Assembly (NCBI GenBank): GCA_016181935.1
Contig: JACOYI010000002.1
Location: 63,961-127,960 of the forward strand
Source: Candidatus Niyogibacteria bacterium
GTDB taxonomy: Bacteria; Patescibacteriota; Minisyncoccia; HO2-45-28
Reading direction: 5' to 3'
DNA length: 64,000 nt
In this document: positions 2,482 through 63,868 of the stretch, one piece after another
Position numbering within the stretch: position 1 is the stretch's first letter
Layout: each line of letters starts with the position of its first letter
Notes under the pieces: model-generated
What the model was told of the DNA's origin: nothing
Database searches by the model: none
The model's input: the letters and a program-made list of their open reading frames with translations, nothing else
Translations under genes and position numbers: made by a program

Positions 2482-3759
2482 CTATACCGATTTGAGCGCC
2501 TTTCGCACAACTTCGCGGTCGTCCCATGCGGTGCGGGAGCCATGCGGACCCATGATCCACGGCTCGCATCCCTTGCCCGTGATGATGACGACATCTCCCG
2601 CTTTTGCGTCATGAATCGCGCGCTCGATTGCCGTGCCGCGATCTAAAATTTTCACCGCCTTCGTCCCCGCGCCGACGCCCGTTTCAATTTCAAGTAAGAT
2701 TTTTTGCGGGTCTTCATCGTAAGGGTCTTCGTTCGTCAAAATCACTTCCGAGCAAAATTCGGATGCGATCTTCCCGAATTCGGGGCGCTTCCATTTGTCT
2801 CTGCCGCCGCCCGCCGCACCGAGCACGCAAATCAATTTTTTGCCTTTGAGCGCCTCGTATACTTTGTGGAGTGCGTCAGGCGTATGTGCATAATCCACGA
2901 TGACCGCGAACGGCTCCTTCTGAATGTATTCCATCCGTCCCGCGACCACATCCACTTTTTCAATGCCGCGCTTGATCTCGTCCCAGCCAATATTCATCGC
3001 GCGCGCGAGCGCGACGGCCGCTGCGATGTTGGCGAGATTGAATGCGCCTACGAGTTTGGAGCGGATTTCCATCCCTTGCGGGGTCAGAATCCGCATCCCA
3101 TCGTCCTCGAACGCAACCTCGTATTCCTTTGCGGAGTAGGTGATTTTTTTGTCGGCGTCGTAGCGCAGGAACCGGTCGCGCGATGCGTCATCCGCATTCA
3201 CCACCATCACTTTCGGGATTTCGTTTTTGCGATAGGTTTTTGAAAGCAATTTAAAAAGTTTTTCCTTCGCTCGGCGATATTTTTCAAACGAGCCGTGCGA
3301 TTCGATGTGTTCGGGCGTCACGTTCGTGAGCACGAGCGCATCCCACGCGATGGCGCGGTGGCGCGATTGGCGGATGCCCTCGGAGGTCGCTTCGAGCACC
3401 GCATGCGTCGCGTGTTCGCGCTTGGCATCGCGCAAAAACTTCTGGAGCGCTCCGCGGCCGGGCATCGTCATTTTGAGCGTGTTCGGCCATTCCTTATCAC
3501 CGATTTTGAACCGCACGGACGACACGGACGCGACTTTGAACCCCGCCTCCTCCAAAATTTTCACGATGAGCTCCACGGTCGTGGATTTCCCATTCGTCCC
3601 CGTGACGCCGATCACCGTCATCCCCCGCGAGGGATGCCCGTACCAAGCGGCGGCGAGCGCCGAAAGCGCTCCGTGGTAAAACGGCTGGGCAAAACGGAAA
3701 AGGGGCGCGGGAATGACCGGCCGGATGAGATCCCGAACCCTTGACATAAATCCATTCAC
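2482..3759 (-). CDS. murE: Mur ligase family protein (MurE-like UDP-MurNAc-tripeptide synthetase)
   Basis: P-loop GVTGTNGKSTT, DYAHTPDAL motif and Mur ligase middle/C-terminal architecture. At 425 aa it is shorter than canonical MurE, which may be lineage-specific. Confidence 0.7.
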   Translation of the reverse strand: MNGFMSRVRDLIRPVIPAPLFRFAQPFYHGALSALAAAWYGHPSRGMTVIGVTGTNGKSTTVELIVKILEEAGFKVASVSSVRFKIGDKEWPNTLKMTMPGRGALQKFLRDAKREHATHAVLEATSEGIRQSRHRAIAWDALVLTNVTPEHIESHGSFEKYRRAKEKLFKLLSKTYRKNEIPKVMVVNADDASRDRFLRYDADKKITYSAKEYEVAFEDDGMRILTPQGMEIRSKLVGAFNLANIAAAVALARAMNIGWDEIKRGIEKVDVVAGRMEYIQKEPFAVIVDYAHTPDALHKVYEALKGKKLICVLGAAGGGRDKWKRPEFGKIASEFCSEVILTNEDPYDEDPQKILLEIETGVGAGTKAVKILDRGTAIERAIHDAKAGDVVIITGKGCEPWIMGPHGSRTAWDDREVVRKALKSV

Positions 3760-3822
3760 AGCGTAAAAATTAGCACAGCATTGGTTCGTTCACAATGAAA
3801 TGGCTCAAACCAAGGAGAAGCC

Positions 3823-4512
3823 ATGAAGCGACCGCTCACAATTCTTTTCGCGTTCGTGCTTATCGGATTTCCGATGACGGGGTTTGGGGATGGATATGCG
3901 CCGAAAGGTCCGTGGCGCGTAGTGGTGGCGGAACGAATTTCCTACGACGATTTGGGAAATTGGGAATACGAAGTGCCCGCGGAACTATGCGAGGAGGTCA
4001 TCCAGACAAACGTGCTGGAAAATTACCGTCGATGGTCTCATTCCTACGGTCCGTATGGCCCCTACACCGGAAGTTACAAATCATTTGCCGATTTTCTTTC
4101 GGACAAGATCTGGGGCCTCGACTATGATCATCTTCAAAGTCAAAATAGTCGGTATTACCACGTGGAAATGGTGGTGATCCTTGAAAACGCCGTGGTCAAT
4201 TCCGAGACCACCACCATCACATTGCCCATCGCCAATCCGGAAGAAGACGCGGAGATCCATCTATCGGTTTACTACGATGACCGGCGGTTTCCGATGCGGC
4301 TCGACATTACGGAAGGGGAGGTCCGTGGCGATGCTGCTTCCTCATCGACAGAAGCAAACCTGCTTGTCTGGGCGACCATGGAACAAAAGCCGGTCCTCAT
4401 TAAGGGGGTCGTTCGCATTCCCGAGAGCTACAACGGCATGGTCGAGCTCTTGGACGACATCCGCCATTCCCAGATCAAAATCTGCGCCGTAAGCGCGGTT
4501 TATTCCGAGTAG
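3823..4512 (+). CDS. Hypothetical secreted protein
   Basis: N-terminal signal peptide (MKRPLTILFAFVLIGFPMTGFG). An RBS-like GGAGAAGCC lies upstream. No recognizable domain. Confidence 0.5.
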   Translation: MKRPLTILFAFVLIGFPMTGFGDGYAPKGPWRVVVAERISYDDLGNWEYEVPAELCEEVIQTNVLENYRRWSHSYGPYGPYTGSYKSFADFLSDKIWGLDYDHLQSQNSRYYHVEMVVILENAVVNSETTTITLPIANPEEDAEIHLSVYYDDRRFPMRLDITEGEVRGDAASSSTEANLLVWATMEQKPVLIKGVVRIPESYNGMVELLDDIRHSQIKICAVSAVYSE

Positions 4513-4523
4513 CGCGACAGCTG

Positions 4524-4553
4524 AGGACGTAAGTCCTCGGCTTTTTTATTTTG
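4524..4553 (+). terminator. Rho-independent terminator
   Basis: GAGGAC-GTAA-GTCCTC hairpin followed by GGCTTTTTTATTTT. Confidence 0.6.
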
Positions 4554-4573
4554 ATAACACTGCGAGGGCGGCT

Positions 4574-4822
4574 TTAATAGGCCTTGCTCCGATGTTTTAT
4601 TCTATAAATTTTCACTTCCCTCCGCTTGTCGTCGATTTCGTAAATAACACGCAAATCGCCGATCCGAATCCGCCACGCATTCGGAGACCCGTGTAATTTC
4701 TTAGCGTTTGCGCGCGGGTTGTCGCGTAATTTCAAACAATAACGAATAACCCTCGAGCGCATCGACTTCTCGAGGGCATTCAAATCGCGCTCCGCGCGCC
4801 GCTCGATCAAAACTTTATACAC
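4574..4822 (-). CDS. Type II toxin, RelE/ParE family
   Basis: 82 aa basic protein (…KKLHGSPNAWRIRIGDLRVIYEIDD…) with RelE/ParE-like architecture. It overlaps the upstream antitoxin ORF by 8 nt. Confidence 0.65.
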   Translation of the reverse strand: MYKVLIERRAERDLNALEKSMRSRVIRYCLKLRDNPRANAKKLHGSPNAWRIRIGDLRVIYEIDDKRREVKIYRIKHRSKAY

Positions 4823-5027
4823 GCTCCCGGAGATACTCGCCTAGCGCGCGAAAAGAGGTTTTACCTCTCCGAATGCGGTGCAATTCCTGAAGGTCGCTTT
4901 TTTCTTCTGCCGCTCCTAACAACCGTTCATATTCTTTGATATCCAAAATGACGGATTTCGGCTTTCCGCCGCGAAGCACAATTTTAGGTTTTGCAATGAC
5001 ATTGGGCATAAACCAGTATGCTGGCAT
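4815..5027 (-). CDS. Type II antitoxin (Phd/YefM- or RelB-like)
   Basis: 70 aa ORF immediately upstream of and overlapping the RelE-like ORF. The KSVILDIKEYERLL segment resembles Phd/YefM antitoxins. Confidence 0.5.
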   Translation of the reverse strand: MPAYWFMPNVIAKPKIVLRGGKPKSVILDIKEYERLLGAAEEKSDLQELHRIRRGKTSFRALGEYLRERV

Positions 5028-5061
5028 TTCGACTAAAAATCAATCGTTTTTTAATTCCCGC

Positions 5062-5119
5062 CCACCGTCATCCCACGCGAGGGGTGGCCGTACCAATCCG
5101 CCAAGAGCTCGGCGAGAAG
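5062..5119 (-). pseudogene. Orphan duplicated fragment of the murE 5' coding end
   Basis: About 40 bp nearly identical to murE 3616-3659. On the minus strand it translates to LLAELLADWYGHPSRGMTVGGN*, compared with murE LSALAAAWYGHPSRGMTVIG. It is truncated by a stop and has no start. Confidence 0.55.
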
Positions 5120-5148
5120 GAGATGTGATGTCGATTTTAAAAACAAAA

Positions 5149-5439
5149 TCAAAAAGAATCGCTCCATCCTGTTGGCAAGGTCACTGGCGAAAGATTTATT
5201 GGGGGTTGAGGTAATACCGGAGTAGAAGGCGGCAACTTTGGTAATCTTGGGACCGGAGATACGGCAAACTGATTAAAGATGATGTATTTGCTGTTCCAAA
5301 TCTGGCCGCGAAAGTTTCCTCTCGAATCCCATACATAATTATTTTCAACCCACCCCCAATATTCGCCATCCCTCGAAAATAATGAGCCAGTAGAAATAAA
5401 GCCGATATAAACTCCGTTTGACTTAAAAATAAAATTCAT
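5149..5439 (-). CDS. Hypothetical small protein in a low-GC islet
   Basis: 96 aa ORF directly downstream of the protease gene on the same strand. It has a Pro-rich middle (PVPRLPKLPPSTPVLPQPP) and no homology I recognize. Confidence 0.3.
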   Translation of the reverse strand: MNFIFKSNGVYIGFISTGSLFSRDGEYWGWVENNYVWDSRGNFRGQIWNSKYIIFNQFAVSPVPRLPKLPPSTPVLPQPPINLSPVTLPTGWSDSF

Positions 5440-5446
5440 ATTGCTT

Positions 5447-6151
5447 TTATTTTTTACTTAACTCCGAATTTTCGGGTAATTCTGAAATTTCTTTGTGCTC
5501 TGGTATATAAGAGGCAGGTACGGCATAGCCAACACCCAACTGCATATTTTTCGTCAACGCCTGATACATTTCCACAAGATCAATACCGTGCAATGAAATT
5601 GCGCCGAGCGACATTTTTTCAACCTTGCTTAAAAGATCGGAGCGCTCTCGTCGAGTTGCATTCACTACCCCAATAACCTCGCCATGGGAGTTCATAAGCG
5701 GACAACCACTATTCCCAGGATTTACTGTTCCATCAATAAGATAAGTTGTAGTTCCAACGGCATCCTTTGTAATCGCTGACAAAATACCTTGATGGGTTGT
5801 CAGAGTTTCCAAATTGAGAGGAAATCCCGAAAAAATAACGGGTACTCCCGGTTTAATTTTTTCTCTTGCCCCAATTGGCAAAATAGACCGATCTCCGCTT
5901 TCTAATTTTAACAAGGCTAAATCGTGTTCGGAGTCGCGTATTGCAACTTTTGCGGCTATAAAATTTTCATCATCAGAAAATCGACACAATAACGACTGAC
6001 TGCCTTCGATAACATGATCACAGGTCACAAGAATCCCTTTTTTTGAAAACAAAAATCCGGATCCGGTGCTATCGACCTTATTTTTGGCATTGAGACAATA
6101 TATTTTAGCAATGCTCGGTGTAATTTTTTCGACTATATTCGCGTAATCCAT
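5447..6151 (-). CDS. Trypsin-like serine peptidase (S1 family, HtrA-like core without a PDZ domain)
   Basis: Catalytic triad context TCDHVI (His), DLALLKL (Asp) and GNSGCPL (Ser). Local GC is markedly lower than the flanking DNA. Confidence 0.7.
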   Translation of the reverse strand: MDYANIVEKITPSIAKIYCLNAKNKVDSTGSGFLFSKKGILVTCDHVIEGSQSLLCRFSDDENFIAAKVAIRDSEHDLALLKLESGDRSILPIGAREKIKPGVPVIFSGFPLNLETLTTHQGILSAITKDAVGTTTYLIDGTVNPGNSGCPLMNSHGEVIGVVNATRRERSDLLSKVEKMSLGAISLHGIDLVEMYQALTKNMQLGVGYAVPASYIPEHKEISELPENSELSKK

Positions 6152-6194: not shown

Positions 6195-6761
6195 CTACCT
6201 CCCCAACACTGCGAGAGCGGCTTTGATGCGGGCTTCGGCGCCTACGACATCCGACGACACTTTCGCGAGCGCATCTCTAGCTTCACGCAAAGAATACCCC
6301 AGTGCAGCGAGCGCTTCAAGCGCGTCCTCCTCATGGCGGAACTCGTCGGACGCCATCGTTTTGCCCATTTTTTCGCGAAGTTCAATGATGATTTTCTCCG
6401 CGGTTTTCCTCCCGATGCCAGATACCTTCGTGAGATAGCTCGTCTCCCCTCCCGCGATGGCTTTTTTCAACATATCGAGCGATGCCACGCCGAGCACGGA
6501 GAGGGCTGTGCGCGGCCCCACGCCCGATACGCTGTTCAACAAATCGAACAGATCAAGCTCGCCGTAGGTCAAAAACCCATACAATTCCTGCGCGTCCTCC
6601 CGCTGGCGGTGTGCCGTGTAGATTTTGACGGTGTCCCTGTTGTGTGGTATGGTTCGGAGCGTTTCGGGTCCTACGAACACTTTGTAGCCCACGCCGCCCG
6701 CCTCCAATATCAGGAAGCGCTCTCCTCGGAAGACGATTTTACCCTCCAAGCTGGCTATCAT
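6195..6761 (-). CDS. ruvA: Holliday junction DNA helicase RuvA
   Basis: N-terminal OB fold (MIASLEGKIVF...GVGYKVFV), HhH motifs and a C-terminal RuvB-interaction domain. Confidence 0.85.
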   Translation of the reverse strand: MIASLEGKIVFRGERFLILEAGGVGYKVFVGPETLRTIPHNRDTVKIYTAHRQREDAQELYGFLTYGELDLFDLLNSVSGVGPRTALSVLGVASLDMLKKAIAGGETSYLTKVSGIGRKTAEKIIIELREKMGKTMASDEFRHEEDALEALAALGYSLREARDALAKVSSDVVGAEARIKAALAVLGR

Positions 6762-6807
6762 CTTACTATTATAGTATATGTATATTCAATTTGTAATCAA
6801 AATGTAC

Positions 6808-6849
6808 TTCTAACACATTCCTGACGGCCGTCAGGAATGTGTTAGAAGA
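6808..6849. promoter_or_regulatory. 42-bp perfect palindrome in the ruvA/uvrB divergent promoter region
   Basis: CTTCTAACACATTCCTGACGG|CCGTCAGGAATGTGTTAGAAG lies between divergent DNA-repair genes. It is a candidate operator. Confidence 0.4.
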
Positions 6850-6863: not shown

Positions 6864-8852
6864 ATGAACCGATTTAAACTCCACTCACCCTACCAGCCGA
6901 CCGGAGACCAGCCCGCCGCCATCGAAAAGCTCGCGGCGGGTATTCGCGCGGGCAAAAAGCACCAAACACTCTTGGGCGTGACGGGCTCCGGTAAGACCTT
7001 CACAATGGCCAATGTCATCGAGAAGCTCAATCGCCCTGCGCTCGTCATTTCGCATAACAAAACGCTCGCCCTCCAGCTGTATCAGGAGTTCAAGGAATTT
7101 TTCCCACTAAACGGCGTCCACTATTTCGTCTCGTATTACGACTACTACCAGCCCGAGGCCTACCTCCCCACCACCGACACCTATATCGAAAAAGACGCGA
7201 AAATCAACGACTTCATCGACCGCCTGCGCCACGCGACCACCGCCTCCGCGCTCACGCGGCGCGATTTTGTGATTTGCGCATCCGTGTCCTGCATTTACGG
7301 CTTGGGCGATCCGGAGGAATACGAAAATGTCGCGCTCGAATTGCGCGTCGGGCAAACGATGAAACGAAAGGATTTAACCGAGCGCCTCGCCGACCTGTAT
7401 TACGAACGCAATGACACCGAATCGCCTGCCTCGCCGTTTGGCGGGCGCTACGGCACCTTCAGCGCCAAAGGTGATGTGATTTCCATTGCGTCCCCCGACG
7501 GCGCCACCATCACCGAAATTGAACTCCTTGGCGACAAAATCGACGCGATGCGGGAATACAAAAACGACATCCACCGCTCGGGTGAACGCGCCATTGAATC
7601 CAAACACTTCTTCCCCGCCAAACATTTCGTCACGCCGAAGGATAAATTGAAAGTCGCGATGGCGAATATCCGCACCGAGCTCGCCACGCGCCTCACCGCG
7701 CTCAAAAAAGCGGGCAAAATCCTCGAGGCCGCGCGGTTGGAACAGCGCGTGAATTTTGACCTCGAAATGCTCGAGACCACGGGCTATGTGTCGGGCATCG
7801 AAAATTATTCGCGCCAGTTGTCGTTCCGCAACGCGGGCGAGCCGCCGTTCACATTATTGGATTATCTCCCCGACGATACGCTCGTCATCATCGACGAATC
7901 CCACATGACCGTCCCGCAGATCGGCGGAATGTACGCGGGCGACCAAGCGCGCAAAAATGTTCTTGTGGATTACGGGTTCCGTTTGCCCTCTGCGCTCGAC
8001 AACCGGCCGCTCAAATTCGCGGAGTTCGATGAAAAAGCGGGACAGCGCGTGTATGTGTCCGCCACGCCCGCGCAGTATGAAATTGACGCGTCAGGTCCGG
8101 ATGGAATCGCGGAACAGCTCATCCGCCCCACCGGACTCCTCGACCCCGTCATCGAAATCCGCCCCGCGCGAAATCAATTAAAAGATGTGGAACAGGAAAT
8201 CGCAAAATGCGTCGCCGCGGGCGAGCGCGCGCTCGTCGTGACGCTCACCAAGCGCCTCGCCGAGGATATCGCCGCGCATTTCAAGGACGCCGGCATCAAA
8301 GCCGAATACATGCACTCGGAAATCAAAACGCTTGAGCGCGGCAAAATTTTGGAAAAATTGCGCCGCGGCGAAATTGACGTCCTCATCGGCATCAACCTGC
8401 TCCGCGAAGGGCTCGATTTGCCGGAAGTGGCGCTCATCGCCATTCTCGACGCGGACAAAGAAGGATTTTTGCGCAATGAAACTTCATTGATTCAAACCAT
8501 CGGCCGCGGCGCGCGCCATCCGAAAGGCCGCGCGATTCTCTATGCCGATATTGTGACGGGCTCGATACAGCGCGCGCTCGATGAAACCAACCGTCGCCGC
8601 AAAATTCAGGAGGACTATAACCGCGAGCACGGCATCACGCCGACCGCGGTCATCAAGCCCATCCGCGCACCGTTGTTGGAAGAGGAAAAAGACAAGCGCG
8701 ACCCCGTCGGCGCGCTCGTGAAAGATTTGTACGAAACGCTTAAGGACCATGACGCGGTCAAAGCCGAACTCGAACGTCAAATGCTCATCGCCGCCGACGA
8801 ACTCCGCTTCGAAGACGCCGCGCGATTGCGGGATGTGCTGGGAACGCTATAA
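6864..8852 (+). CDS. uvrB: Excinuclease ABC subunit B
   Basis: 662 aa with Walker A GVTGSGKT, helicase motifs and the C-terminal UvrB/UvrC interaction helix (...ADELRFEDAARLRDVLGTL). Confidence 0.95.
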   Translation: MNRFKLHSPYQPTGDQPAAIEKLAAGIRAGKKHQTLLGVTGSGKTFTMANVIEKLNRPALVISHNKTLALQLYQEFKEFFPLNGVHYFVSYYDYYQPEAYLPTTDTYIEKDAKINDFIDRLRHATTASALTRRDFVICASVSCIYGLGDPEEYENVALELRVGQTMKRKDLTERLADLYYERNDTESPASPFGGRYGTFSAKGDVISIASPDGATITEIELLGDKIDAMREYKNDIHRSGERAIESKHFFPAKHFVTPKDKLKVAMANIRTELATRLTALKKAGKILEAARLEQRVNFDLEMLETTGYVSGIENYSRQLSFRNAGEPPFTLLDYLPDDTLVIIDESHMTVPQIGGMYAGDQARKNVLVDYGFRLPSALDNRPLKFAEFDEKAGQRVYVSATPAQYEIDASGPDGIAEQLIRPTGLLDPVIEIRPARNQLKDVEQEIAKCVAAGERALVVTLTKRLAEDIAAHFKDAGIKAEYMHSEIKTLERGKILEKLRRGEIDVLIGINLLREGLDLPEVALIAILDADKEGFLRNETSLIQTIGRGARHPKGRAILYADIVTGSIQRALDETNRRRKIQEDYNREHGITPTAVIKPIRAPLLEEEKDKRDPVGALVKDLYETLKDHDAVKAELERQMLIAADELRFEDAARLRDVLGTL

Positions 8853-8940
8853 TCCCGCCGCCAGCTTGACAATCCATCTCATCTTTGGTATTCACAAACA
8901 AGCAGCTCGTTAAAAATCGCCACGGAATAAGGAGATAAGC

Positions 8941-9513
8941 GTGGACCGGCAAAAAGCCCAAGAGATCGTGGATGCGGCTATTCGGTTGCCGCTGTCGGAA
9001 CTTCTATATACGGCGGAGGAGATCGAGGAGGCGGTCCGAGCGAACACGACGGAAGTTTTCAATCGAATTCCGGAAATTGAAAATGCGCAAAAAGAATACA
9101 GGGAATCACTTCTTCGCGAGGCAACAATACAGCACAAAATAAAGAGGCTTTTGCTACGGGCAGGATTTCGCCCCTATAACGGCTGGACTCTAAATGGTCT
9201 GGAAGTGATGTGTACCAAGACCGCGAGCGTAGGCGAAGACCCCAGATACGACAAACCAAAACACATAGCAATCGTAAGGCCGAGGCGCTTTGTTACAAGA
9301 CCTCGGGATAAATGGATTGGATTGATTCATCTCTCCGAAAAATCGAATGAAATTCTTATAGAAATATTCGGGTCAAGAAATATTGCCGCGATCGCCGATA
9401 TATCAGAAAAAATCAGGCAGCAAATGAACCTTTCGGTTCGTTGTGATCTGGTGCTGAGAAAAGAGAAGGAGCTCGATGGAGATTGGATTGATGTTTGTAA
9501 AACAGGCCCCTAA
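8941..9513 (+). CDS. Hypothetical protein, paralog A (shares an N-terminal ~40 aa module with the 10706 gene)
   Basis: GTG start after an AGGAGA RBS. The N-terminus MDRQKAQEIVDAAIRLPLSELLYTAEEIEEAVRANTTEVF is about 85% identical at the DNA level to the start of 10706..11050. The remainder is low-GC. Confidence 0.5.
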   Translation: MDRQKAQEIVDAAIRLPLSELLYTAEEIEEAVRANTTEVFNRIPEIENAQKEYRESLLREATIQHKIKRLLLRAGFRPYNGWTLNGLEVMCTKTASVGEDPRYDKPKHIAIVRPRRFVTRPRDKWIGLIHLSEKSNEILIEIFGSRNIAAIADISEKIRQQMNLSVRCDLVLRKEKELDGDWIDVCKTGP

Positions 9514-9540
9514 AAACAAGGCTTAGCCTGCGGAGCGCAC

Positions 9541-9834
9541 ATGAAAAAAGCTCTAAAATGGGCGACGATTTTCTTTGTTGCGGCAACGTTTTCGATCTGG
9601 CTTGCCGGATTCGTTGATCCACAGATCAGCGATTTCTACTCGCGTCATATAACAAAATTCGGTTTCCTGTTTAAATTCGAACTCTACGGCACGCGCCGTG
9701 ACGGCCGCGGGAAAGCAAAAGCGCAAAAATCACTACACCGCCGGAAGAACGATCGCCAGCATACGCCCTCTCACGATAGAGAGGGTATTTTTATTGGGCG
9801 ACACCGAAACATCGCACGCGCGCTTGACACATAG
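9541..9834 (+). CDS. Hypothetical small membrane protein
   Basis: 97 aa with one TM (WATIFFVAATFSIWLAGFV) between paralog A and pspA. Weak evidence. Confidence 0.25.
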   Translation: MKKALKWATIFFVAATFSIWLAGFVDPQISDFYSRHITKFGFLFKFELYGTRRDGRGKAKAQKSLHRRKNDRQHTPSHDREGIFIGRHRNIARALDT

Positions 9835-9975
9835 CGAGCCAATATGTTATTCAAGCGGTGTCCCTTAAAAACCATTCGGTCCAACCTTCCTAAAAGGAGT
9901 GCAGACGTGCTTACCACCATTCTGGTCATCGCCGGTCTCGCCCTATTCTTGGGCAGTACGTATCGGACCCGATTC

Positions 9976-10695
9976 ATGCGAGTCGTGCGTTCGCATATCG
10001 GCGCCTTGATACGCCGGGCGGAAAATCCGGAGAAAATGATCGAGCATGCGTTGACAGAGATGACCGGCGCCTATCACCAAGCGCGAGAGCAAACGGCGCT
10101 TGCGATCGCCGCACAGAAGAAGATGGCGCGCCAGCTCGAGGAAGAGCAAACCGAAACCCAGCGCTGGATGGAGCGGGCGCGTCTGGCTGTGAACAAAAAT
10201 GATGACGACCTGGCCCGCGAAGCGCTCCGGCGCAAGCAGGAACATGCGACCGTGGCCCTGCAAATCGAGAGCCAACTTGTGCATTACAGCGCCCACGTCG
10301 AAAGCTTGAAGAGCGCGCTGGACGATCTCGAGCGAAAGATCGAGGAAGCGAGGCGGCGGAAAAATCTTCTCGTCGCGAAACAACGGCGAGCCGAGGCGCA
10401 GGATCGGATCTACGCCACCATGAACGGCATCCAGAACGAAGGCGGCCTCGAGCTGATCGAACGGATGGAACAGAAGATCGATGAAATATGCGATGCCGCG
10501 GATGCGCGCATCGATCTGAAATCCGAAAAAGAAAAACTGGAGATCCGATTCCAGCAGCTCGAATCCGTGGATGTCGAAACGGAACTCTCCCTGCTCAAGA
10601 ACCGGCGCGCGATCGAGTACAAGCCGGTGGAATCGCCCGTTCCCGAGCTCGACATGATTCGGGAAAAGTCGCCGCTCGCGGTAAAGCCCGCCTAA
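9976..10695 (+). CDS. pspA: PspA/IM30 family protein
   Basis: Starts ...RRAENPEKMIEHALTEM, the canonical PspA N-terminus, and has a long coiled coil. The ORF could extend upstream to 9844 with an added TM segment, but the canonical start fits 9976. Confidence 0.75.
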   Translation: MRVVRSHIGALIRRAENPEKMIEHALTEMTGAYHQAREQTALAIAAQKKMARQLEEEQTETQRWMERARLAVNKNDDDLAREALRRKQEHATVALQIESQLVHYSAHVESLKSALDDLERKIEEARRRKNLLVAKQRRAEAQDRIYATMNGIQNEGGLELIERMEQKIDEICDAADARIDLKSEKEKLEIRFQQLESVDVETELSLLKNRRAIEYKPVESPVPELDMIREKSPLAVKPA

Positions 10696-10705
10696 GGAGA
10701 CCCTG

Positions 10706-11050
10706 ATGGACCTGCAAAAAGCCCAAGAGATTGTGGATGCGTGCGTCACGCTTCCGTTGTCGGAACTTCCGTATACGGCGGAGGAGATCGAGGCGGCGGT
10801 ACGAACAAACGCAACCAACAGTATCACCCGGAATACGCCGAAGAAAATAGGAGTTTTTGAATCCATGTTGGCACATATAATGCCAAAATTTCCGAAAATA
10901 TTTTTAGTCTGCGGTTTATTGGCCGGTTTCGGAGCTTTTTTGTCGCCAATCTCACCGCTCTTTTTTCTCGCGTTTGCTTTACCATACGTAGGGCTCATGG
11001 TGACAGTCATACTTCTTGGAATCTGTGAGGAAATGCTGCGCTGGTGGTAA
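10706..11050 (+). CDS. Hypothetical membrane protein, paralog B (shared N-terminal module)
   Basis: N-terminus MDLQKAQEIVDACVTLPLSELPYTAEEIEAAVRTN followed by 2-3 TM helices. It sits immediately after pspA and is a possible PspA membrane partner. Confidence 0.5.
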   Translation: MDLQKAQEIVDACVTLPLSELPYTAEEIEAAVRTNATNSITRNTPKKIGVFESMLAHIMPKFPKIFLVCGLLAGFGAFLSPISPLFFLAFALPYVGLMVTVILLGICEEMLRWW

Positions 11051-11123
11051 AACCAGGTATGAAATAATGCGATCATTCTTAACATAAAAACTGCGCAATG
11101 CCTATTGCGTGGTTTTTTAATTG

Positions 11124-11168
11124 TTCGGCCTCGAGGACGCCGCGCGGTTGAGGAATGTGCTGGGGACG
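11124..11168 (+). pseudogene. Orphan duplicated fragment of the uvrB 3' end
   Basis: Translates to EDAARLRNVLGTL*, compared with uvrB C-terminus EDAARLRDVLGTL*. It is about 85% identical to 8808-8852 and has no upstream ORF. Confidence 0.55.
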
Positions 11169-11184
11169 CTGTAAAAAAAGAAAA

Positions 11185-11219
11185 ACCGCCAAGCCGTTTT
11201 TTATTTTTGGCTTGGCGGT
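11185..11219. terminator. Stem-loop terminator after the orphan uvrB tail
   Basis: ACCGCCAAGCC-(T-rich loop)-GGCTTGGCGGT with an upstream A-tract. This is probably the ancestral uvrB terminator. The U-tract geometry fits minus-strand or bidirectional use. Confidence 0.45.
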
Positions 11220-11440
11220 ACTGTTGTGTCGCCCGCTTTGTTCTTTCCGGAGCTGTGGCGCGCCGCGTGCCCGGAAATATCCCTGTCGCTCATTCCCTAG
11301 ACCGGGAAACGTCTTTGGGAATGCCGGCTGTCTCGCCTTCCGCCAGGTTCCGCCGGAACGAACTCTGACAAGGGCAGTATAGCGCGTATCTGTAAACCCA
11401 AGGGCTTCGGTGATGACCCCAAAAGCGCCTTCAAAAGGCC

Positions 11441-13562: not shown

Positions 13563-15962
13563 TTAGACGATCTTTTTTAATTCCGCCCAGTTCGGGCCCG
13601 CGCTCACCTCCACCGCGAGCGGAATATCGTCTTTGTAAACGCCTTCCATTTCCTGCTTAATGAGCGTCGCCGCCTCTTTTACGGCAGAATCCTCGATCTC
13701 GAACAAGAGTTCGTCGTGGATCTGCAGAACCATCCGCACTTTTTTACCAAGCCCCGCTTTCGCGAGCGCCGGATGCAGTCGTACCATCGCTTTTTTTATC
13801 ATATCCGCCGCACTCCCCTGAATGGGCGCATTGATGGCCATGCGCAGATATTCGTGATGCATGTATTCGGGCATGGTCTGCAATTCCGGAAAATACCGCC
13901 GCCGCCCGAAAAGCGTGGTCGTATATCCGTTTTCGGCCGCCTCGCGCTTCACCTCCTCGATATATTCTTTCACGCGCCCAAAATCGTGGAAATATTTATC
14001 ATAGAATTCGCGCGCCTTTTCCTGCGTCACACCCAAGCTCTCGGCAAGCGCGCGTACGCCCATACCGTACAAAATCCCGAAATTGATGGTCTTGGCGGCA
14101 TAGCGCATATCCTTGGTAACGTTTTTGATATCGACATGGAACATCGCGGCGGCGGTTGCCGTATGAATATCGCGCCCCGCGAGAAACGCCTCTTTCAGAA
14201 TCGGATCATCCGACAAAATCGCGGCGATGCGCAATTCGATCTGCGAATAATCCGCGGCAACGAGTGTCCAACCAATAGGGGCGACAAATGCCTTGCGGAC
14301 CTCGCGACCGAGCTCGGTTCGGATGGGAATATTTTGCAGATTCGGATTCTCGGACGAAAAACGGCCGGTCACGGTCCCCGCCTGATTGAGCGTCGTGTGC
14401 ACCCGTCCTTCCGCATCCGCAAGCGCGGGAAGCGCATCGATATAGGTGGATTTCAGTTTTGCGAGCTCGCGGTATTGCAATATCAGCTCCACAATCGGAT
14501 GCGCGCTCTTCAGTTTTTCAAGCTCTGAGGCATTCGTCGAGAGCGCGCCCTTGCCGGTTTTGCGGATGCCTTTCGCGCTCAACTTCAATTGATTGAACAA
14601 AATATCGGACAATTGCTTGGGCGAATTGATGGTGAATTCCGTCCCTGCGAGTTCCCAGATCTTTTTCTCGAGCTCCGCGATTTTCTTTTCGTAGATTTTC
14701 GACATCCCTCCGAGATAGTCGCGATCGATCATCGTGCCGGCGCGGTGCATCTCATCCAAAATACCGATGAGCGGCAATTCGGTTTTTTCAAAAAATTCCA
14801 GCAGGCCTTCTTTTGCGAGTTCCGCGCGAAAATGCCCGAGCGCCGCCTCCGGTGTACTCGCCCCGGCGATGCGCATCGCTTCGTCCGGCGCGATGCCGAC
14901 GCGCCGCGAATCGAGGAGCCATGCCGCAACGGCAAGCTCCCGCGCAATTTTAGGATCATGCGCTTCCGAAGGCGCGAATAATTCCTGTGTTCCGCTTTCC
15001 GGCCTGCCCGCCGACCCGCGCTCCGCCGTAGGCTCTGGCGAGGCGAGAGCTCCAGCGAAGGAGGGCAAACGTGCGATCAAACTCGTGAATCCAAGCGCGC
15101 GAAAAAGCGGCTCGACAGCGCCGCGCTCGAATTGCTTCCACTCGGCGTCTTTTAGATCGAATTCGACGGGCGCGTCGCGGCGGATGGTGCTAAGTGTTTT
15201 GGAAAATAGTGCATCCTCCGATCTCTCGCGGAGCAATCCCGCCATCCGGTCTTTGATGCCCGCCGCCTTCAGTTTTTCCGGTTTTGTTTTCGCGAGCTTT
15301 ACAATATCCTCCACCGAACCGAATTTTTGAACGAGGATTTCCGCGGTTTTTTCGCCAATGCCCTTCACCCCCGGAATGTTGTCCGACGGGTCGCCGCGCA
15401 ACCCTTTGTAATCCGGCAATAATTCGGGGCCGAATCCGAACCGTTCGCGCACCGCTTTTTCATCATAAATAAAACTTTCGTTCCCCTTTTTGAGCGTCCA
15501 GACGCGCACGCGCGTCGAATCCACCAATTGCAATGCATCGAGGTCGCCCGATGCGATGATGATGGAAAGATTTTTCTCTTTTTTCAGCTTTTCAACGATG
15601 GTGCCGACGATGTCATCCGCCTCGAATCCGGCCTTTTCCAGCAACGGAATATGGAATGTTTCGACGATCTCGCGCGAACGCGCGAATTGTGAAATGAGCG
15701 CGGGTTCGGCCTCCGGCCGCTGGGCTTTGTATTTTTCGTAAGCCGCATGGCGGAACGTGGGCTCCGGAAGATCGTTCGCCGCGACCAAATAGTCGGGTTT
15801 GAATTCCTTCGCGATGCGAAGGATCGTCGTCGTCAATCCGTAGAGCGCGCCGGTCGGCTCGCCCGACGGCGACGTGAACGGCGGCAATGCGTGATACGCG
15901 CGATGTAGGATCGCGTGCAGATCGAGAATGACGAGCGTTTTGTTTTTAGATTTAGAACTCAT
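13563..15962 (-). CDS. polA: DNA polymerase I
   Basis: 799 aa with an N-terminal 5'-3' exonuclease/FEN domain and C-terminal family A polymerase motifs (…RRYAAKTINFGILYGMG…, QIHDELLFE). Confidence 0.95.
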   Translation of the reverse strand: MSSKSKNKTLVILDLHAILHRAYHALPPFTSPSGEPTGALYGLTTTILRIAKEFKPDYLVAANDLPEPTFRHAAYEKYKAQRPEAEPALISQFARSREIVETFHIPLLEKAGFEADDIVGTIVEKLKKEKNLSIIIASGDLDALQLVDSTRVRVWTLKKGNESFIYDEKAVRERFGFGPELLPDYKGLRGDPSDNIPGVKGIGEKTAEILVQKFGSVEDIVKLAKTKPEKLKAAGIKDRMAGLLRERSEDALFSKTLSTIRRDAPVEFDLKDAEWKQFERGAVEPLFRALGFTSLIARLPSFAGALASPEPTAERGSAGRPESGTQELFAPSEAHDPKIARELAVAAWLLDSRRVGIAPDEAMRIAGASTPEAALGHFRAELAKEGLLEFFEKTELPLIGILDEMHRAGTMIDRDYLGGMSKIYEKKIAELEKKIWELAGTEFTINSPKQLSDILFNQLKLSAKGIRKTGKGALSTNASELEKLKSAHPIVELILQYRELAKLKSTYIDALPALADAEGRVHTTLNQAGTVTGRFSSENPNLQNIPIRTELGREVRKAFVAPIGWTLVAADYSQIELRIAAILSDDPILKEAFLAGRDIHTATAAAMFHVDIKNVTKDMRYAAKTINFGILYGMGVRALAESLGVTQEKAREFYDKYFHDFGRVKEYIEEVKREAAENGYTTTLFGRRRYFPELQTMPEYMHHEYLRMAINAPIQGSAADMIKKAMVRLHPALAKAGLGKKVRMVLQIHDELLFEIEDSAVKEAATLIKQEMEGVYKDDIPLAVEVSAGPNWAELKKIV

Positions 15963-16078
15963 TTCAAAAATGTTATGAACCGAGCGCGTGCCGTTAAAAA
16001 GGGCTTTCGGAGCGCGACGGCGCGAGAACGAGCCGATTTTTCAGCAGAAGCGGCATGCGGGAGGGTAATTTTTGAAAT
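15955..16078. repeat. IR-flanked intergenic repeat element, copy 1 (core shared with 35088-35150)
   Basis: 17-bp terminal inverted repeats GAACTCATTTCAAAAAT / ATTTTTGAAATGAGTTC. The core TCGGAGCGCGACGGCGCGAGA…GATTTTTCAGCAGAA…CGGCATGCG recurs at 35088-35150. Confidence 0.5.
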
Positions 16079-16083
16079 GAGTT

Positions 16084-16581
16084 CTAGATACCTTCAACAT
16101 GAATCGTGATGTCGCGTTCCGTATCCGAAATAAATTCAAAATGAATATCAAAATGGACCTTGGGCAATAATTTTTCGATGTTTTTCGCCCACTCGACGAG
16201 AATAACTGCGTGGCGGTCCTCTACCCATTCGTTCCAGCCCACGGTTTCGATCTCGCGCGCTCCGCCGGCTGGCGGACCAAGACGATACGCGTCCACATGA
16301 ATGAGTTTGGTGTATCCGCCGCGCGTAAACGCATAATTGCGCGCGATAAGAAAGGTGGGGCTCTGAACCGCATCGCGGATACCGAGTCCTTTCGCGAATC
16401 CCTGCACGAATGTAGTCTTGCCGCCGCCCAAGTCCCCCGAGAGCGCGACAACGAGCGCGTGGTCATGAAAAGAAACAGCCGCGAGGTCCTTGGCGAGAAG
16501 TCCGGCGATCCGCTGGGTTTCGCCGGCGCTTTTCGTTCGGAAACGCACTTGCCTCGCGGACGGGCGGGTGCGGCTGTCCAT
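16084..16581 (-). CDS. tsaE: tRNA t6A biosynthesis ATPase TsaE (YjeE)
   Basis: P-loop LSGDLGGGKTTFVQG and TsaE size and architecture. Confidence 0.8.
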   Translation of the reverse strand: MDSRTRPSARQVRFRTKSAGETQRIAGLLAKDLAAVSFHDHALVVALSGDLGGGKTTFVQGFAKGLGIRDAVQSPTFLIARNYAFTRGGYTKLIHVDAYRLGPPAGGAREIETVGWNEWVEDRHAVILVEWAKNIEKLLPKVHFDIHFEFISDTERDITIHVEGI

Positions 16582-19557: not shown

Positions 19558-19719
19558 ATGCGGGTTATGAAATCTATTTTAGAAACCCCGCAGGCGCTTT
19601 GCATGGTGTTTTTTGGCTATCATGTACGCGAAGCGAGCCAAAAAACAAAGCGCCAAGGACGGAGTCAGAACATCGCTGGATGTTCTGATGTGTTCTAAAA
19701 TAGATTTCATAACCCGCAT
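19558..19719. repeat. Intergenic element bounded by a 27-bp perfect inverted repeat
   Basis: ATGCGGGTTATGAAATCTATTTTAGAA … TTCTAAAATAGATTTCATAACCCGCAT flanks about 107 bp that contain an internal hairpin (CAGAACATC-GCTG-GATGTTCTG). Confidence 0.5.
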
Positions 19720-21398: not shown

Positions 21399-21501
21399 AT
21401 TTTGGCGGGCGGGGAGATTTAAGCTGGAGAGCTGGAGACTGGATTGCTGGAGGCTGGATTTCCCAGATTCCGGCTCTCTAGTCTCTAGAGCTCCAAGATT
21501 A

Positions 21502-59043: not shown

Positions 59044-59044
59044 T

Positions 59045-61456: not shown

Positions 61457-62368
61457 GTGCGACGCATAGATATACAAGCCCTCTATAGAAATTACCTCGA
61501 ATACTTGGAGATCGAGCGGGGGCGGAGCTTGAAAACGCTCGATAATTACGGGCACTATATTTCGGCGTTTCTTGAATTTGCGAAGGCGAAGACGCCAGAC
61601 GATATCACCGAGGACGGCGTGCGGGAGTTTCGGATGCGGCTCAACCGCGCGAATCTCAAGCGCCGGACGCAAAACTACTATCTTATAGCACTCCGCGGAT
61701 TCCTGAAGTATCTGGCCAAGCGCGGGGTTCCGAGTTTGGCGCCCGAAAAGATCGAACTGGCCAAGGTGCCGGAGCGCGAATTCGACTTGATTAGTGACGA
61801 CGAATTGGGGCGTCTGCTCGCCTCCCCCAACGGGTCGGACGCGAAAAGCATGCGCGACCGCGCACTCTTTGAATTGTTGTTTTCGACGGGATTACGGGTT
61901 TCGGAGCTCTGTTCGCTCAATCGGGATTCGATCAATCTCTCGCGCGGCGAGTTCAGTGTGCGCGGAAAAGGCGAAAAAGTGCGCGTGGTATTTTTGTCGG
62001 ACAGCGCGCGCGATGCTCTTAAGGGGTGGCTCGATAAGCGGAAGGATATGAGCGAAGCATTGTTTACGAATTTCCGGCGCGGCGCAAAAGACGAACTGGA
62101 TGAAAAAGCGCGGCTTACCTCCCGCTCGGTGGAGCGCATCATCAAGTTTTATGCGGTAAAGGCGGGCATCTCGAAAAAGGTCACGCCGCACGTATTGCGG
62201 CATTGTTTTGCGACCGATCTTTTGCAAAACGGCGCGGATTTGCGTTCGGTGCAGATGCTCTTGGGCCATGCGAATGTGGCGACGACGCAAATTTATACGC
62301 ACATCACGAACCGGCAGTTAAAAGATATTCATCAAGCGTTCCATGGGAAAAAAAGAAGGGCGAATTGA
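61457..62368 (+). CDS. Tyrosine recombinase (XerC/XerD family)
   Basis: GTG start. N-terminal core-binding domain and catalytic R…HxxR…Y pattern (VLRHCFATDLL…LLGHANVATTQIYTH). It is divergent from the Cys-rich gene across about 26 bp. Confidence 0.85.
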   Translation: MRRIDIQALYRNYLEYLEIERGRSLKTLDNYGHYISAFLEFAKAKTPDDITEDGVREFRMRLNRANLKRRTQNYYLIALRGFLKYLAKRGVPSLAPEKIELAKVPEREFDLISDDELGRLLASPNGSDAKSMRDRALFELLFSTGLRVSELCSLNRDSINLSRGEFSVRGKGEKVRVVFLSDSARDALKGWLDKRKDMSEALFTNFRRGAKDELDEKARLTSRSVERIIKFYAVKAGISKKVTPHVLRHCFATDLLQNGADLRSVQMLLGHANVATTQIYTHITNRQLKDIHQAFHGKKRRAN

Positions 62369-62386: not shown

Positions 62387-62677
62387 TTAAGCATATGCGC
62401 CTGATTTCATTTGCTCGATAATCTCCTCAACCGCTTCGATGTCTCCTCGTTCGATGCGCTCTCGGGGCGTATCGCCGCCCAATAGTTTGTTGGGCAAACT
62501 GATCCATCGTAACGCTTCTTCCCTTGAATATAGCTTGTTGAGTAGCCACAAGATCCGTTCCACATCAGACGACACGGCGTTCTTTCTCCGCGGAAATCCG
62601 CGCCTTTTCTTCCGTTGTCGGGAGCCAGATGAAGGGCATGGCGAATAGTGCGATGGCGACGATAATCTTTGCGACAA
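62387..62677 (-). pseudogene. Possible remnant of a DUF2384 (Xre/MbcA/ParS-type) antitoxin C-terminal domain
   Basis: The C-terminal 55 aa (…EALRWISLPNKLLGGDTPRERIERGDIEAVEEIIEQM) match the DUF2384 pattern. The N-terminal part is low-complexity and there is no HTH and no RES/ART toxin partner. It overlaps a 71-aa membrane ORF (62565..62780). Confidence 0.3.
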
Positions 62678-62780
62678 AAAATCCTACCTCTTCTCCCACG
62701 CCGACCGCGGCGAGTGCAAAAACGGCGGAGATTCCCGCGATCTCGAGCGAGCGCCTGACCTTGTCATTCCGGTTTTTCAT
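62565..62780 (-). CDS. Hypothetical small membrane protein
   Basis: 71 aa with a strong RBS (GGGAGAGAAAA ATG) and one or two TM helices. It conflicts with the DUF2384-like reading frame. Confidence 0.3.
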   Translation of the reverse strand: MKNRNDKVRRSLEIAGISAVFALAAVGVGEEVGFFVAKIIVAIALFAMPFIWLPTTEEKARISAEKERRVV

Positions 62781-62905
62781 TTTTCTCTCCCGATGAAGTT
62801 GTCAAACCGTTGTTTGCGAGTTGTTCAAAACTACGGCCATATTACATACAAACACCAACTATGTCAAGCGCGAAAGAGAATCCCGATGCCAAGCATCGGG
62901 TTTTG

Positions 62906-63529
62906 TTAGAATCGTTCGATTGCGTCCTCACATTTTTCAATGCCGGTTTGGGTGCAGTCATACCAGCAGGTTTTGCCGCCCTGCGCCGCAAATGCGTCGA
63001 GATAGGGGCGGACGTCATCAATGTACAGGATGTTTGATGGGTGGGCGCCGGAGCGCGCAATAGCCGTAAGAAAGATTTTTTCCTCGGGTTTGCGGGCGCC
63101 GACCTCAAAAGACAGGATGCGGCGTTCGGGATTTGAAAAATATTTTTGAATCACCGGAAGCCGCTGAACGTATTCCCATTGGATCTCATCGATGTTGGAC
63201 AGGAGAAACATCGAAATATCCATTTCGTGAATGATTTCGAGAGTGTTGGCGATGCCGTGGTTTTCCCGAAAAATATCACCCCACAGGCGCCGGAATGCCG
63301 CAAAGGATATTTTTTTGTTGAGAGAAAAGCGGTTTCGAAATTCTTCGAAAAATTCTTTTGCGCTCACTTCCCCCCGTTCGCGCCGATCCAGAGAGGAATC
63401 CGAAAAGGTCGCTTGCATGATTTCTTCCGGCGCTGCCGCAGAAAGCAGGGCGAGTTTTTTACACGCCATTTCGCGGTCAAATGTCACGAGCACATTTCCG
63501 ACATCTAACAACACGGCTTTGGGGACTGT
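62906..63529 (-). CDS. HAD-superfamily hydrolase
   Basis: Motif I LLDVGNVLV (DxG/DxV); the ORF ends …ILYIDDVRPYLDAFAAQG… (motif IV Asp). The start was chosen at MTVPKAV. Confidence 0.7.
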   Translation of the reverse strand, partial: TVPKAVLLDVGNVLVTFDREMACKKLALLSAAAPEEIMQATFSDSSLDRRERGEVSAKEFFEEFRNRFSLNKKISFAAFRRLWGDIFRENHGIANTLEIIHEMDISMFLLSNIDEIQWEYVQRLPVIQKYFSNPERRILSFEVGARKPEEKIFLTAIARSGAHPSNILYIDDVRPYLDAFAAQGGKTCWYDCTQTGIEKCEDAIERF

Positions 63530-63654
63530 CATTCCCGTACCCCTCGCGAAAGAGTTTTGCTTGTTTTTTAAGAGAGCAGGTGAGAACTTCACAGAAAATA
63601 ACGTATTTTTTTATATTTGTCAAGTGGGCGGAATGATGGTATTTTTAATGCGTT

Positions 63655-63726
63655 GCTCTCGTGGTGAAATGGATATCACGGCTGCCTTCGAAGCAGTTAT
63701 TGGGGGTTCGAATCCCTCCGAGAGCA
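63655..63726 (+). tRNA. tRNA-Arg (anticodon TCG)
   Basis: Cloverleaf: acceptor GCTCTCG/CGAGAGC, D-arm GTGA…TCAC with a GG loop, anticodon stem GCTGC/GCAGT with loop CTTCGAA, T-arm GGGGG-TTCGAAT-CCCTC. Discriminator A; CCA is not encoded. Confidence 0.85.
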
Positions 63727-63840
63727 CAAAATTGCTATAGTAATTTTGTGCTCGAAGAGCGAGCCAACTGCTTGGCTCGCGCGAGGATTCGAAGGGTTGA
63801 GCGATGCGCGAGGCGCCGCGAAACTCCGGATTTTGCGTAG

Positions 63841-63868
63841 GGGGCAAAATCGAATCCTGGCGAGAGCA
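63841..63868 (+). repeat. Partial direct repeat of the tRNA-Arg 3' end (att-like)
   Basis: GGGGCAAAATCGAATCCTGGCGAGAGCACA compared with the tRNA 3' end GGGGGTTCGAATCCCTCCGAGAGCACA. A 12-bp inverted repeat (GAGCACAAAATT…AATTTTGTGCTC) directly abuts the tRNA. Confidence 0.4.

Follow-up and report, generated by a model that had tools for sequence, protein, structure and literature searches.

Patescibacteria, the candidate phyla radiation (CPR), have tiny, gene-dense genomes with few recognised mobile elements, and the route by which they gain genes is unclear. Conservation of com genes extends across CPR phyla, and natural transformation is known from Saccharibacteria (PMC10633639). Elements that have lost their integration genes and kept both attachment sites, attL and attR, are described as cis-mobilizable elements (CIMEs; PMC5704250), and a single crossover of a circle bearing a gene-end fragment gives, in the laboratory, duplications of 109–950 bp (PMC3240628). 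The present analysis deals with a stretch of 64 kb (‘the window’) from a groundwater bacterium with a small, gene-dense genome, a Candidatus Niyogibacteria-like member of the Patescibacteria, in which second copies of gene termini (‘orphan ends’) lie beside small inserts at murE, ruvA, uvrB and a tRNA-Arg gene. These orphan ends are interpreted, tentatively and with a confidence just short of even, as scars of recombination between lineages that differ in the content of insertion hot spots, each event combining one homologous exchange with one illegitimate joint. They would be a variant of events of a known kind, namely hot-spot recombination, homology-anchored capture or attachment-type duplication, documented here in an understudied group.

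A sequence-only reading of the window had singled out three duplicates (murE 5′, uvrB 3′ and tRNA-Arg 3′ ends) and had proposed one site-specific integration or repair mechanism that targets gene ends and regenerates them. The three duplicates exist, a few bases from where they had been placed, and two further cases are present in the window. Repeats were sought by self-comparison of the whole 64 kb, with window-wide E-values; domains were called with Pfam, phage proteins with PHROG, and tRNAs with ARAGORN and Rfam. The comparison set consists of 160 Parcubacteria loci fetched around uvrB (loci carry L-numbers), to which L162 and L163, relatives compared at the xerC/tRNA-Arg end, were added. 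The closest genome found, JACOVJ01 (loci L001 and L163), has a UvrB 96% identical in amino acids (aa) and ∼90% identical in nucleotides (nt); a metagenome scan returned no relative closer than 69% aa, and hence no alleles of the window with and without the inserts at the level of strains.

Orphan gene ends at insertion hot spots

The gene order murE←ruvA, uvrB→rpsT, holA←polA is conserved in the 160 Parcubacteria loci. rpsT follows uvrB within 250 nt in 75 of 122 loci (39/65 and 36/57), and ruvA adjoins murE with a gap <50 nt in 21 related loci. In the other loci the gap can reach ∼5 kb, and what it contains varies greatly. Since related loci conserve the order and their junctions are usually empty, the inserts of the window are true insertions, and the ruvA–murE and uvrB–rpsT junctions are hot spots. 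Families found there include FemAB, ParE, PemK, HicA, PIN, a DNA methylase and one IS1595 transposase. In a Pfam census of 149 hot-spot open reading frames (ORFs), which fell into 43 families, Phage_integrase was not among the top 25.

At the uvrB–rpsT junction of the window, the 3′ end of uvrB (8803–8852) recurs at 11125–11174 with 84% identity over 50 nt (E=9e-8). Both copies end in a TAA stop, and the orphan differs by five synonymous and three non-synonymous codon changes, with the stop kept. A long hairpin with a T-rich loop (ACCGCCAAGCC...GGCTTGGCGGT, 11178–11222) follows it. The insert between the two copies holds four small genes and no recombinase. It begins with a TTGACA-containing stretch (8863–8892) that is kept in L001, where this stretch and a PspA-N-like remnant are all that is retained of the insert; no PspA gene was seen beside uvrB in the first 80 related loci. 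Nested in this insert is a duplicate that had escaped the sequence-only reading: the 5′ end of ORF190 (8942–9045) matches the 5′ end of ORF114 (10707–10810) with 85% identity over 105 nt. The first 42 codons are shared (71% identity over 42 aa), and the duplicate spans 1.66 kb.

The ruvA–murE junction carries two orphan ends. The 5′ end of murE is duplicated (3608–3658 versus 5058–5108, 80% over 51 nt) with a core of 91% identity (3613–3646/5063–5096), and at the protein level the minus strand of 5152–5057 reads LILFLKSTSHLLLAELLADWYGHPSRGMTVGG, which matches MurE residues 20–51 (E=2e-7). The orphan is 84% identical to the murE 5′ end of L001, which itself carries an orphan at the same position (L001 5014–5055). 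The MurE N-terminus of the window aligns from residue 1–12 with MurE of other Parcubacteria, and MurE is 86% aa identical between the window and L001. Self-comparison of the window yields only four significant direct repeats, the murE and uvrB pairs among them, and a window-wide search at the protein level for more orphan termini returned nothing beyond the known pairs.

The second orphan at this junction, a 33-nt copy of the ruvA 3′ end, is a case beyond the three first noticed. The working end (6195–6227) encodes IKAALAVLGR before the stop; the orphan is 91% identical to 6205–6227 over 23 nt and shows, in frame, four synonymous and two non-synonymous codon changes, its stop being kept with a switch from TAG to TAA. 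The murE 5′ and ruvA 3′ orphans bracket a toxin–antitoxin pair ‘inside-out’ (Pfam ParE_toxin E=3e-10 and PhdYeFM E=2e-5; PHROG RelE-like toxin E=2e-19), which gives the order ruvA, trypsin/Bflower cargo, murE 5′ scrap, Phd/ParE, ruvA 3′ scrap, ORF229, murE. The 229-aa protein has no Pfam or PHROG match and a homologue of 78% aa identity at the same place in L001; its gene has a promoter-like site (3741–3770) and a terminator (4519–4542). L001 lacks the Bflower/trypsin cargo and has another ORF, of 152 aa, in its place. The murE 3′ end, for its part, is duplicated in L001 around a peptidase-C15 gene and a YdjM gene, and the window represents the empty site.

Further observations concern the same region. 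The toxins at equivalent positions (window 4574–5027, L001 4564–4990) are ∼35% identical, as compared with 78–97% for neighbouring genes, and the toxin–antitoxin cassette seems to have been swapped in place. In L001, a HicB-like/HicA pair (3158–3695; HicB-like by sequence, with no Pfam match) lies directly upstream of murE, and its MurE, compared with that of the window and of other Parcubacteria, starts ∼25 residues further downstream and differs in the first seven residues.

At the tRNA-Arg gene, the duplicate (63708–63731 versus 63850–63873) matches in 20 of 24 positions, too weak for window-wide significance. The orphan is, however, 90% identical over 29 nt to the 3′ end and trailer of the tRNA in the sister genome (L163 4008–4036). 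Compared by eye with L163 and L162, the working tRNA-Arg is 97% identical to the sister gene over positions 1–30 and 74% identical from position 31 onward, with compensated stems. A sister-type orphan together with divergence from position 31 fits either a recombination or a satellite model. The 122-nt spacer between the two copies matches no Rfam family. The sequence-only reading had pointed to the xerC-family gene at 61457 as the only recombinase in the window. This gene has >8000 homologues at E<1e-40, is 65–75% identical across Parcubacteria (comparable to UvrB) and lies upstream of tRNA-Arg in L162 and L163 as it does in the window; from these comparisons it appears to be a conserved, vertically inherited housekeeping Xer, separate from the inserts. 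XerC was rejected as the responsible enzyme, on the grounds that its gene belongs to the conserved core and that no sequence is common to the targets.

Around this tRNA, a HAD-family hydrolase gene and its flanks (62791–63611) are absent from the sister genome L163, with no visible repeat; there, no more than ∼50 nt separate the small gene downstream of xerC from the tRNA-Arg promoter region, and tRNA-Arg and cca lie 7 nt apart. The hydrolase region thus adds one more insertion/deletion difference between the two genomes. In L162, whose XerC is 91% identical, an RHH/YafQ-RelE-like toxin–antitoxin pair (4524–5045) lies between tRNA-Arg and cca. On the minus strand of the window, a 96-aa ORF (62387–62677) has an Xre/MbcA/ParS-type antitoxin C-terminal domain (E=4e-6). 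An independently assembled 1.2-kb Logan contig (L161, equivalent to window 62545–63711) breaks in the tRNA T loop where the duplicate begins, which may reflect strain heterogeneity at that point.

The recurrence suspected by the sequence-only reading extends beyond the window: other Parcubacteria acquired the same scar independently, at the uvrB 3′ end, the uvrB 5′ end, the murE 3′ end and several tRNAs. The three loci are thus not unrelated coincidences, and the lack of further instances that this reading had named as a refutation does not hold. Orphan uvrB 3′ ends enclose a promoter with an RHH antitoxin and a MazF/PemK toxin in L013 (94% over 47 nt), a GIY-YIG gene in L019 (Pfam E=1e-15; a protein-level match with mostly synonymous differences), a MerR-type and a DUF4325-like gene in L152 (85% over 149 nt) and a HicAB pair in L001 (a short remnant). 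They are also found in L160 (74% over 87 nt) and L077 (69% over 86 nt plus a protein-level match), and in L060 and L112 the orphan stands directly after the stop codon, with no cargo and a match at the protein level only, an architecture common to two genomes that are 87% identical. At the other end of the gene, L027 has a 100% identical duplicate of the first 60 nt of uvrB, with an RHH/RelE-like pair and a small ORF between the copies. Upstream of uvrB, L046 has a homologous toxin–antitoxin pair (70% aa to that of L027) together with a terminator and a small ORF, and no orphan; it is a donor-type allele for the L027 event; in L111 the site is empty.

A scan of 50 tRNAs in 2.3 Mb found four end orphans, all of them oriented like the tRNA and none reversed; with the tRNA-Arg case of the window, which lies below the scan threshold, five tRNAs are concerned. 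In L020 and L073 the duplicate begins at the anticodon loop, in the window and in L002 at the T loop. L020 is a cargo-less tandem, and L040 has an array of partial tRNA 3′ ends. In L073 (6535–6936), a GIY-YIG gene lies between a 36-nt, 100% identical copy of the 5′ half of tRNA-Arg(CCG) and the complete tRNA; the orphan half has a 31-nt hairpin inserted in its anticodon loop, and the insert, as read from its sequence, holds a hairpin and one GIY-YIG-like ORF. More generally, short direct repeats outnumber inverted ones (65 versus 22 in 1.33 Mb). Frequent cargo is a toxin–antitoxin pair or a GIY-YIG gene.

Two structures within these scars deserve separate mention. A 65-nt hairpin element lies inside the orphan uvrB end of L112 (2735–2805) and L060 (4355–4425) with a TTCG duplication at its flanks and looks like a miniature inserted palindromic element. 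In L019 (12044–12375), 9-nt inverted repeats (GTCCCGATT ... AATCGGGAC) bound the GIY-YIG insert.

The copies themselves inform on their origin. Duplicates range from 24 to ∼150 nt, and in the cases inspected at base level the stop or start codon is the exact limit of the similarity, beyond which one copy adjoins the cassette and the other the ordinary flank, as is expected if the copies were joined to different flanking DNA. The 3′ orphans examined in frame keep the frame, and their stop is displaced by no more than two codons (not at all in 5/7), including switches from TGA to TAA and from TAG to TAA. Working and orphan copies differ by ∼54 synonymous and 32 non-synonymous codons (63% synonymous, against 14–25% by chance; the L001 murE 3′ pair was counted by hand), and in L152 by 16 synonymous changes among 18. 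Given this bias, most of the divergence arose while both copies coded. The second copies are foreign, and their codon differences indicate that an orphan is the former working gene end of another lineage, or a working end since replaced by one. No case examined has a damaged working gene. The proposal that gene ends are regenerated is correct only in part: the synonymous bias marks the second copy as an allele that is foreign or older and was not made on insertion. In young events (L027 and L073, both 100%), the copies can be identical when donor and recipient are close. Identical runs reach 60 nt in L027, 36 nt in L073 and 32 nt in L013, and only 11–12 nt in the uvrB and murE pairs of the window; older identical cores may have decayed.

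The search for conserved junction motifs, which a single site-specific system would call for, gave no shared motif: insert ends have only A/T-rich 8-mers in common, and the inserts compared have no terminal inverted repeats except the 9-nt pair in L019. As the sequence-only reading had noted, the inserts lack an integrase of their own: none was recognised in the flanked inserts inspected (window, L001, L013, L019, L027 and L152 by Pfam and PHROGs; L073 by sequence only), nor was any transposase. The orphan boundaries in uvrB lie, depending on the lineage, at about 47, 50, 66, 72, about 75–87 and about 150 nt before the stop codon. With unrelated targets, lengths of 24–150 nt and this shifting inner boundary, one site-specific system is unlikely.

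The same loci are recombination mosaics. uvrB of L112 is 93–97% identical to L159 over 849–1748 and then 90–95% identical to L060 (75–88% to L159) up to 2855, with identity returning toward L159 in rpsT. Between the window and L001, murE is 89–95% identical in the 5′ 500 nt and 72–87% in the 650 nt beside the insert of L001, a drop from ∼93% to ∼80%, and along uvrB the synonymous divergence (dS) goes from 0.24 up to 0.73 as the insert-bearing 3′ end of both genomes is approached. These patterns suggest homologous recombination between diverged lineages at these genes and lend indirect support to a donor-derived tract in the core gene next to an insert.

Explanations of the orphan ends

In the explanation preferred here, the hot spots at ruvA–murE, uvrB–rpsT and the tRNA-Arg flank, all between conserved core genes, hold different small cassettes (toxin–antitoxin pairs, GIY-YIG genes and small operons) in different lineages. 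Incoming DNA of a foreign lineage, which might enter by natural transformation, would pair homologously with one conserved core gene serving as an anchor, and its far end, without a matching partner because hot-spot contents differ, would then be sealed by an illegitimate joint. Either the recipient’s own gene end would be stranded behind the imported cassette, or a scrap of the donor’s opposite core gene would be deposited beside the resident cassette; in both outcomes the working gene would stay whole and a second, foreign copy of the terminus would mark the seam. A single crossover of a circularised fragment could lead to the same product. Repeated rounds would stack hot-spot alleles and give the layered ruvA–murE region. 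In a gene-dense genome, the survivors would be the events that keep the essential gene intact, and because only these survive the duplicate would always include a start or stop codon. This model explains the terminus-inclusive duplicates, their sharp boundaries, the foreign copies, the variable lengths, the many targets and the lack of an enzyme gene. Toxin–antitoxin cargo may help the structures to persist by penalising deletion between the repeats. A common process behind the loci, as first proposed, is supported, and the original interpretation as a whole partly so.

Several points weigh against this explanation. Tyrosine integrases reportedly have their canonical crossover places in the anticodon loop and the T loop, as Williams is said to have described in 2002, and these are the loops at which the tRNA duplicates begin. 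Duplication of the uvrB 3′ end in at least eight lineages could reflect an integrase family with that target. No donor was identified for any event, so that the illegitimate joint and its microhomology are hypothetical. Natural competence of the window lineage is putative, and the 64-kb window contains no com genes. The dS gradients and identity drops could stem partly from uneven constraint, dS being near saturation and the segments short. Finally, classical homology-facilitated illegitimate recombination usually deletes recipient DNA and leaves no second copy (PMC3240628), so that the geometry seen here needs a donor-scrap variant or a circular intermediate. In place of a deletion of recipient DNA the loci have a second gene-end copy, which is compatible only with donor-scrap or upstream-joint variants.

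The strongest competitor, unlikely on balance, holds that the inserts are, or derive from, circular integrase-less site-specific elements, similar to CIMEs or satellites, whose attachment site includes a gene-end copy, whose recombinase (of the tyrosine or serine type) acts in trans and whose attL and attR are the two copies. It is most plausible for the tRNA cases, given the loops at which their duplicates start and the L040 array. Gene-end targeting with regeneration is a hallmark of such elements, and CIMEs keep attL and attR (PMC5704250). The long identical runs in the recent pairs, the repeated use of the uvrB 3′ end and the inside-out order at the murE–ruvA junction, which would be the exact product of a circle integrating at ruvA–murE, point the same way. 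However, no integrase was recognised even in the three youngest inserts (repeats of 94–100%), all of them clean, minimal cassettes free of gene debris, and the hot-spot census gave none among its top families. Insert ends have no common arm or core sequences; at least six unrelated targets would need as many specificities; the uvrB orphan boundaries lie 0 to 36 codons upstream of the FE.AA motif; the tandems L060/L112 and L020 have no cargo; and the only recombinase of the window is the housekeeping Xer. A further, distinctly doubtful proposal is that Patescibacteria have a dedicated route for minimal cassettes without an integrase beside them, in which the gene-end copy would be a portable homology arm or attachment site; toxin–antitoxin pairs, GIY-YIG genes and small operons would travel with it and could insert in every lineage possessing the gene, leaving that gene unharmed.

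Capture driven by a homing endonuclease or another break has little probability. Here, a double-strand break near a gene end would be followed by one-sided repair that copies the gene end and cassette of a diverged template, which is a special case of the preferred recombination between lineages with a defined trigger, for example a free-standing GIY-YIG enzyme. Such a gene is the sole cargo in L019 (uvrB 3′) and L073 (tRNA-Arg 5′ half), and the L019 insert has terminal inverted repeats, but most cases, including all those of the window, have no nuclease in the insert, the 80-aa GIY-YIG proteins have no recognisable DNA-binding domain and no cleavage site is known.

Of equally small probability is in-situ duplication of the target, by which staggered breaks or template switching would copy 24–150 nt of the recipient and the orphan would then drift. 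Young pairs are identical (L027 60/60, L073 36/36) and variable lengths are expected from template switching. Against this, ∼63% of the codon differences are synonymous, where ∼39% is predicted, as a rough estimate, for one drifting copy; the 3′ orphans keep a stop near its original position with switched stop codons; the duplicates inspected at base level end exactly at stop or start codons and not in the spacer; and in the window the tRNA orphan resembles the sister genome (90%) more closely than does the working copy. In view of the synonymous bias and of boundaries lying exactly at stop or start codons, in-situ duplication was rejected as the principal explanation. Unrelated coincidences or metagenome assembly chimeras are most improbable: all sequences are metagenome-assembled, the tRNA match is short and imperfect and the L161 contig ends in the tRNA T loop at 63711, but the murE and uvrB pairs have window-wide E-values of 1e-5 to 1e-7, the structures are common to independently assembled, diverged genomes (window/L001 and L060/L112), and both the excess of direct over inverted repeats and the single orientation of the tRNA orphans would have to be accidental.

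Features of the window and its surroundings

Table 1. Positions of the genes, inserts and orphan ends in the window; aa, amino acids; nt, nucleotides; +/−, strand
Feature	Position	Strand	Remarks
murE-type Mur ligase, intact working gene	2482–3759	−	425-aa ORF, likely ATG start 3747; Pfam Mur_ligase_M and Mur_ligase_C
Working copy of the duplicated murE 5′ segment	3607–3702	−	LFRFAQPFYHGALSALAAAWYGHPSRGMTVIG
229-aa cargo protein (ORF229)	3823–4512	+	between ruvA orphan and murE; no assigned function; signal-peptide-like N-terminus (by eye)
Orphan ruvA 3′ end	4546–4578	−	IKAALAVLSK, then stop; overlaps ParE stop codon
Type II toxin–antitoxin pair	4574–5027	−	ParE/RelE-like toxin 4574–4822; Phd/YefM-like antitoxin 4815–5027
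Orphan murE 5′ fragment	5057–5152	−	...HLLLAELLADWYGHPSRGMTVGGN, then stop
Low-GC (∼40%) cargo	5149–6151	−	Bflower-domain protein 5149–5439; trypsin-like peptidase 5447–6151
ruvA, intact	6195–6761	−	Pfam RuvA_N, HHH_5, RuvA_C
uvrB, intact	6864–8852	+	Pfam
uvrB insert	8853–11124	+	uvrB stop codon to orphan; four small genes
ORF190	8941–9513	+	uvrB insert
ORF97	9541–9834	+	uvrB insert
PspA/IM30	9844 or 9907 to 10695	+	uvrB insert
ORF114	10706–11050	+	uvrB insert
Terminator	11086–11117		uvrB insert
Orphan uvrB 3′ end	11125–11174	+	GLEDAARLRNVLGTL, then stop
rpsT	from 11479	+	
holA, then polA	after rpsT	−	
XerC/XerD-type tyrosine recombinase	61457–62368	+	Pfam Phage_int_SAM_1 and Phage_integrase; 1.3 kb upstream of tRNA-Arg
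tRNA-Arg(TCG), working gene	63655–63727	+	ARAGORN; Rfam 66.5 bits
Non-coding spacer, 122 nt	63728–63849	+	two hairpins, 63722–63753 and 63760–63784
Orphan tRNA-Arg 3′ end	63850–63878	+	T loop to 3′ end plus trailer; sister-genome type

The main genes and scars are listed in Table 1. A 799-aa neighbour considered as ComEC was rejected, Pfam identifying it as DNA polymerase I. The short spacer of the divergent ruvA and uvrB genes contains a perfect 42-nt palindrome (6807–6848, CTTCTAACACATTCCTGACGG followed by CCGTCAGGAATGTGTTAGAAG), which might serve a repair regulon as its operator or might be a hairpin element; in L001 this spacer is ∼400 nt longer. Elsewhere in the window, five intergenic stretches of ∼140–175 nt have inverted repeats of 22–52 nt at their borders (15950–16089, 19558–19719, 21500–21672, 25115–25288 and 35023–35177), and comparable hairpin-bounded spacers are present in L001, L002 and L053. 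The idea that the five form one family was rejected, as only two are alike (15953–16049 and 35024–35121, 77%).

Significance and comparison with known systems

The scars are a readable record of single acquisitions in a group whose gene-gain route is unclear, and they suggest that foreign cassettes use conserved housekeeping genes as landing pads. They also bear on the old question of how toxin–antitoxin modules move between chromosomes without a vehicle, several such modules directly adjoining orphan ends. Orphan termini could serve genome-wide as a marker for recent horizontal transfers and their donors in uncultivated bacteria. If ordinary recombination is at work, the loci would show in nature a process described chiefly from laboratory work; a trans-acting recombinase would imply a new class of minimal satellites; and a dedicated route without a co-located integrase would give a general answer to the spread of toxin–antitoxin modules between chromosomes.

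Among described systems, the model of PMC5635113 shares with the present loci variable cassettes between core genes, no recognised integrase or transposase and mosaics in the flanking core genes, in a group with conserved competence genes (PMC10633639). It differs in that two homologous exchanges leave no scar, whereas here one side is apparently non-homologous and an orphan is left, and in that alleles are swapped there and stacked here. Homology-facilitated illegitimate recombination, known from Acinetobacter, Streptococcus pneumoniae and Pseudomonas stutzeri (PMC3240628), likewise combines one anchor with one illegitimate joint and involves no element-encoded enzyme, a mode that fits the variable boundaries and unrelated targets; laboratory events, however, usually delete about as much as is inserted, whereas here the second copy persists. 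Campbell-type insertion–duplication also leaves a homologous segment duplicated on both sides of the insert, as found here, but would need a 0.3–2.3 kb circular double-stranded intermediate without replication or transfer functions and would have to act on homology of only 24–150 nt. Integrative elements that target gene ends or tRNAs, together with CIMEs (PMC5704250), differ in several respects, since no recombinase is recognised in or beside the inserts inspected, ends are not conserved, targets are many and unrelated, and some of the ‘elements’ measure only 0–0.6 kb; neither an internal recombinase nor a common target position with conserved ends was found among the insertions inspected. 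Transposon target-site duplications similarly flank an insert with a direct repeat of target sequence, but the present repeats are of variable length (24–150 nt), come without terminal inverted repeats or a transposase, and are foreign.

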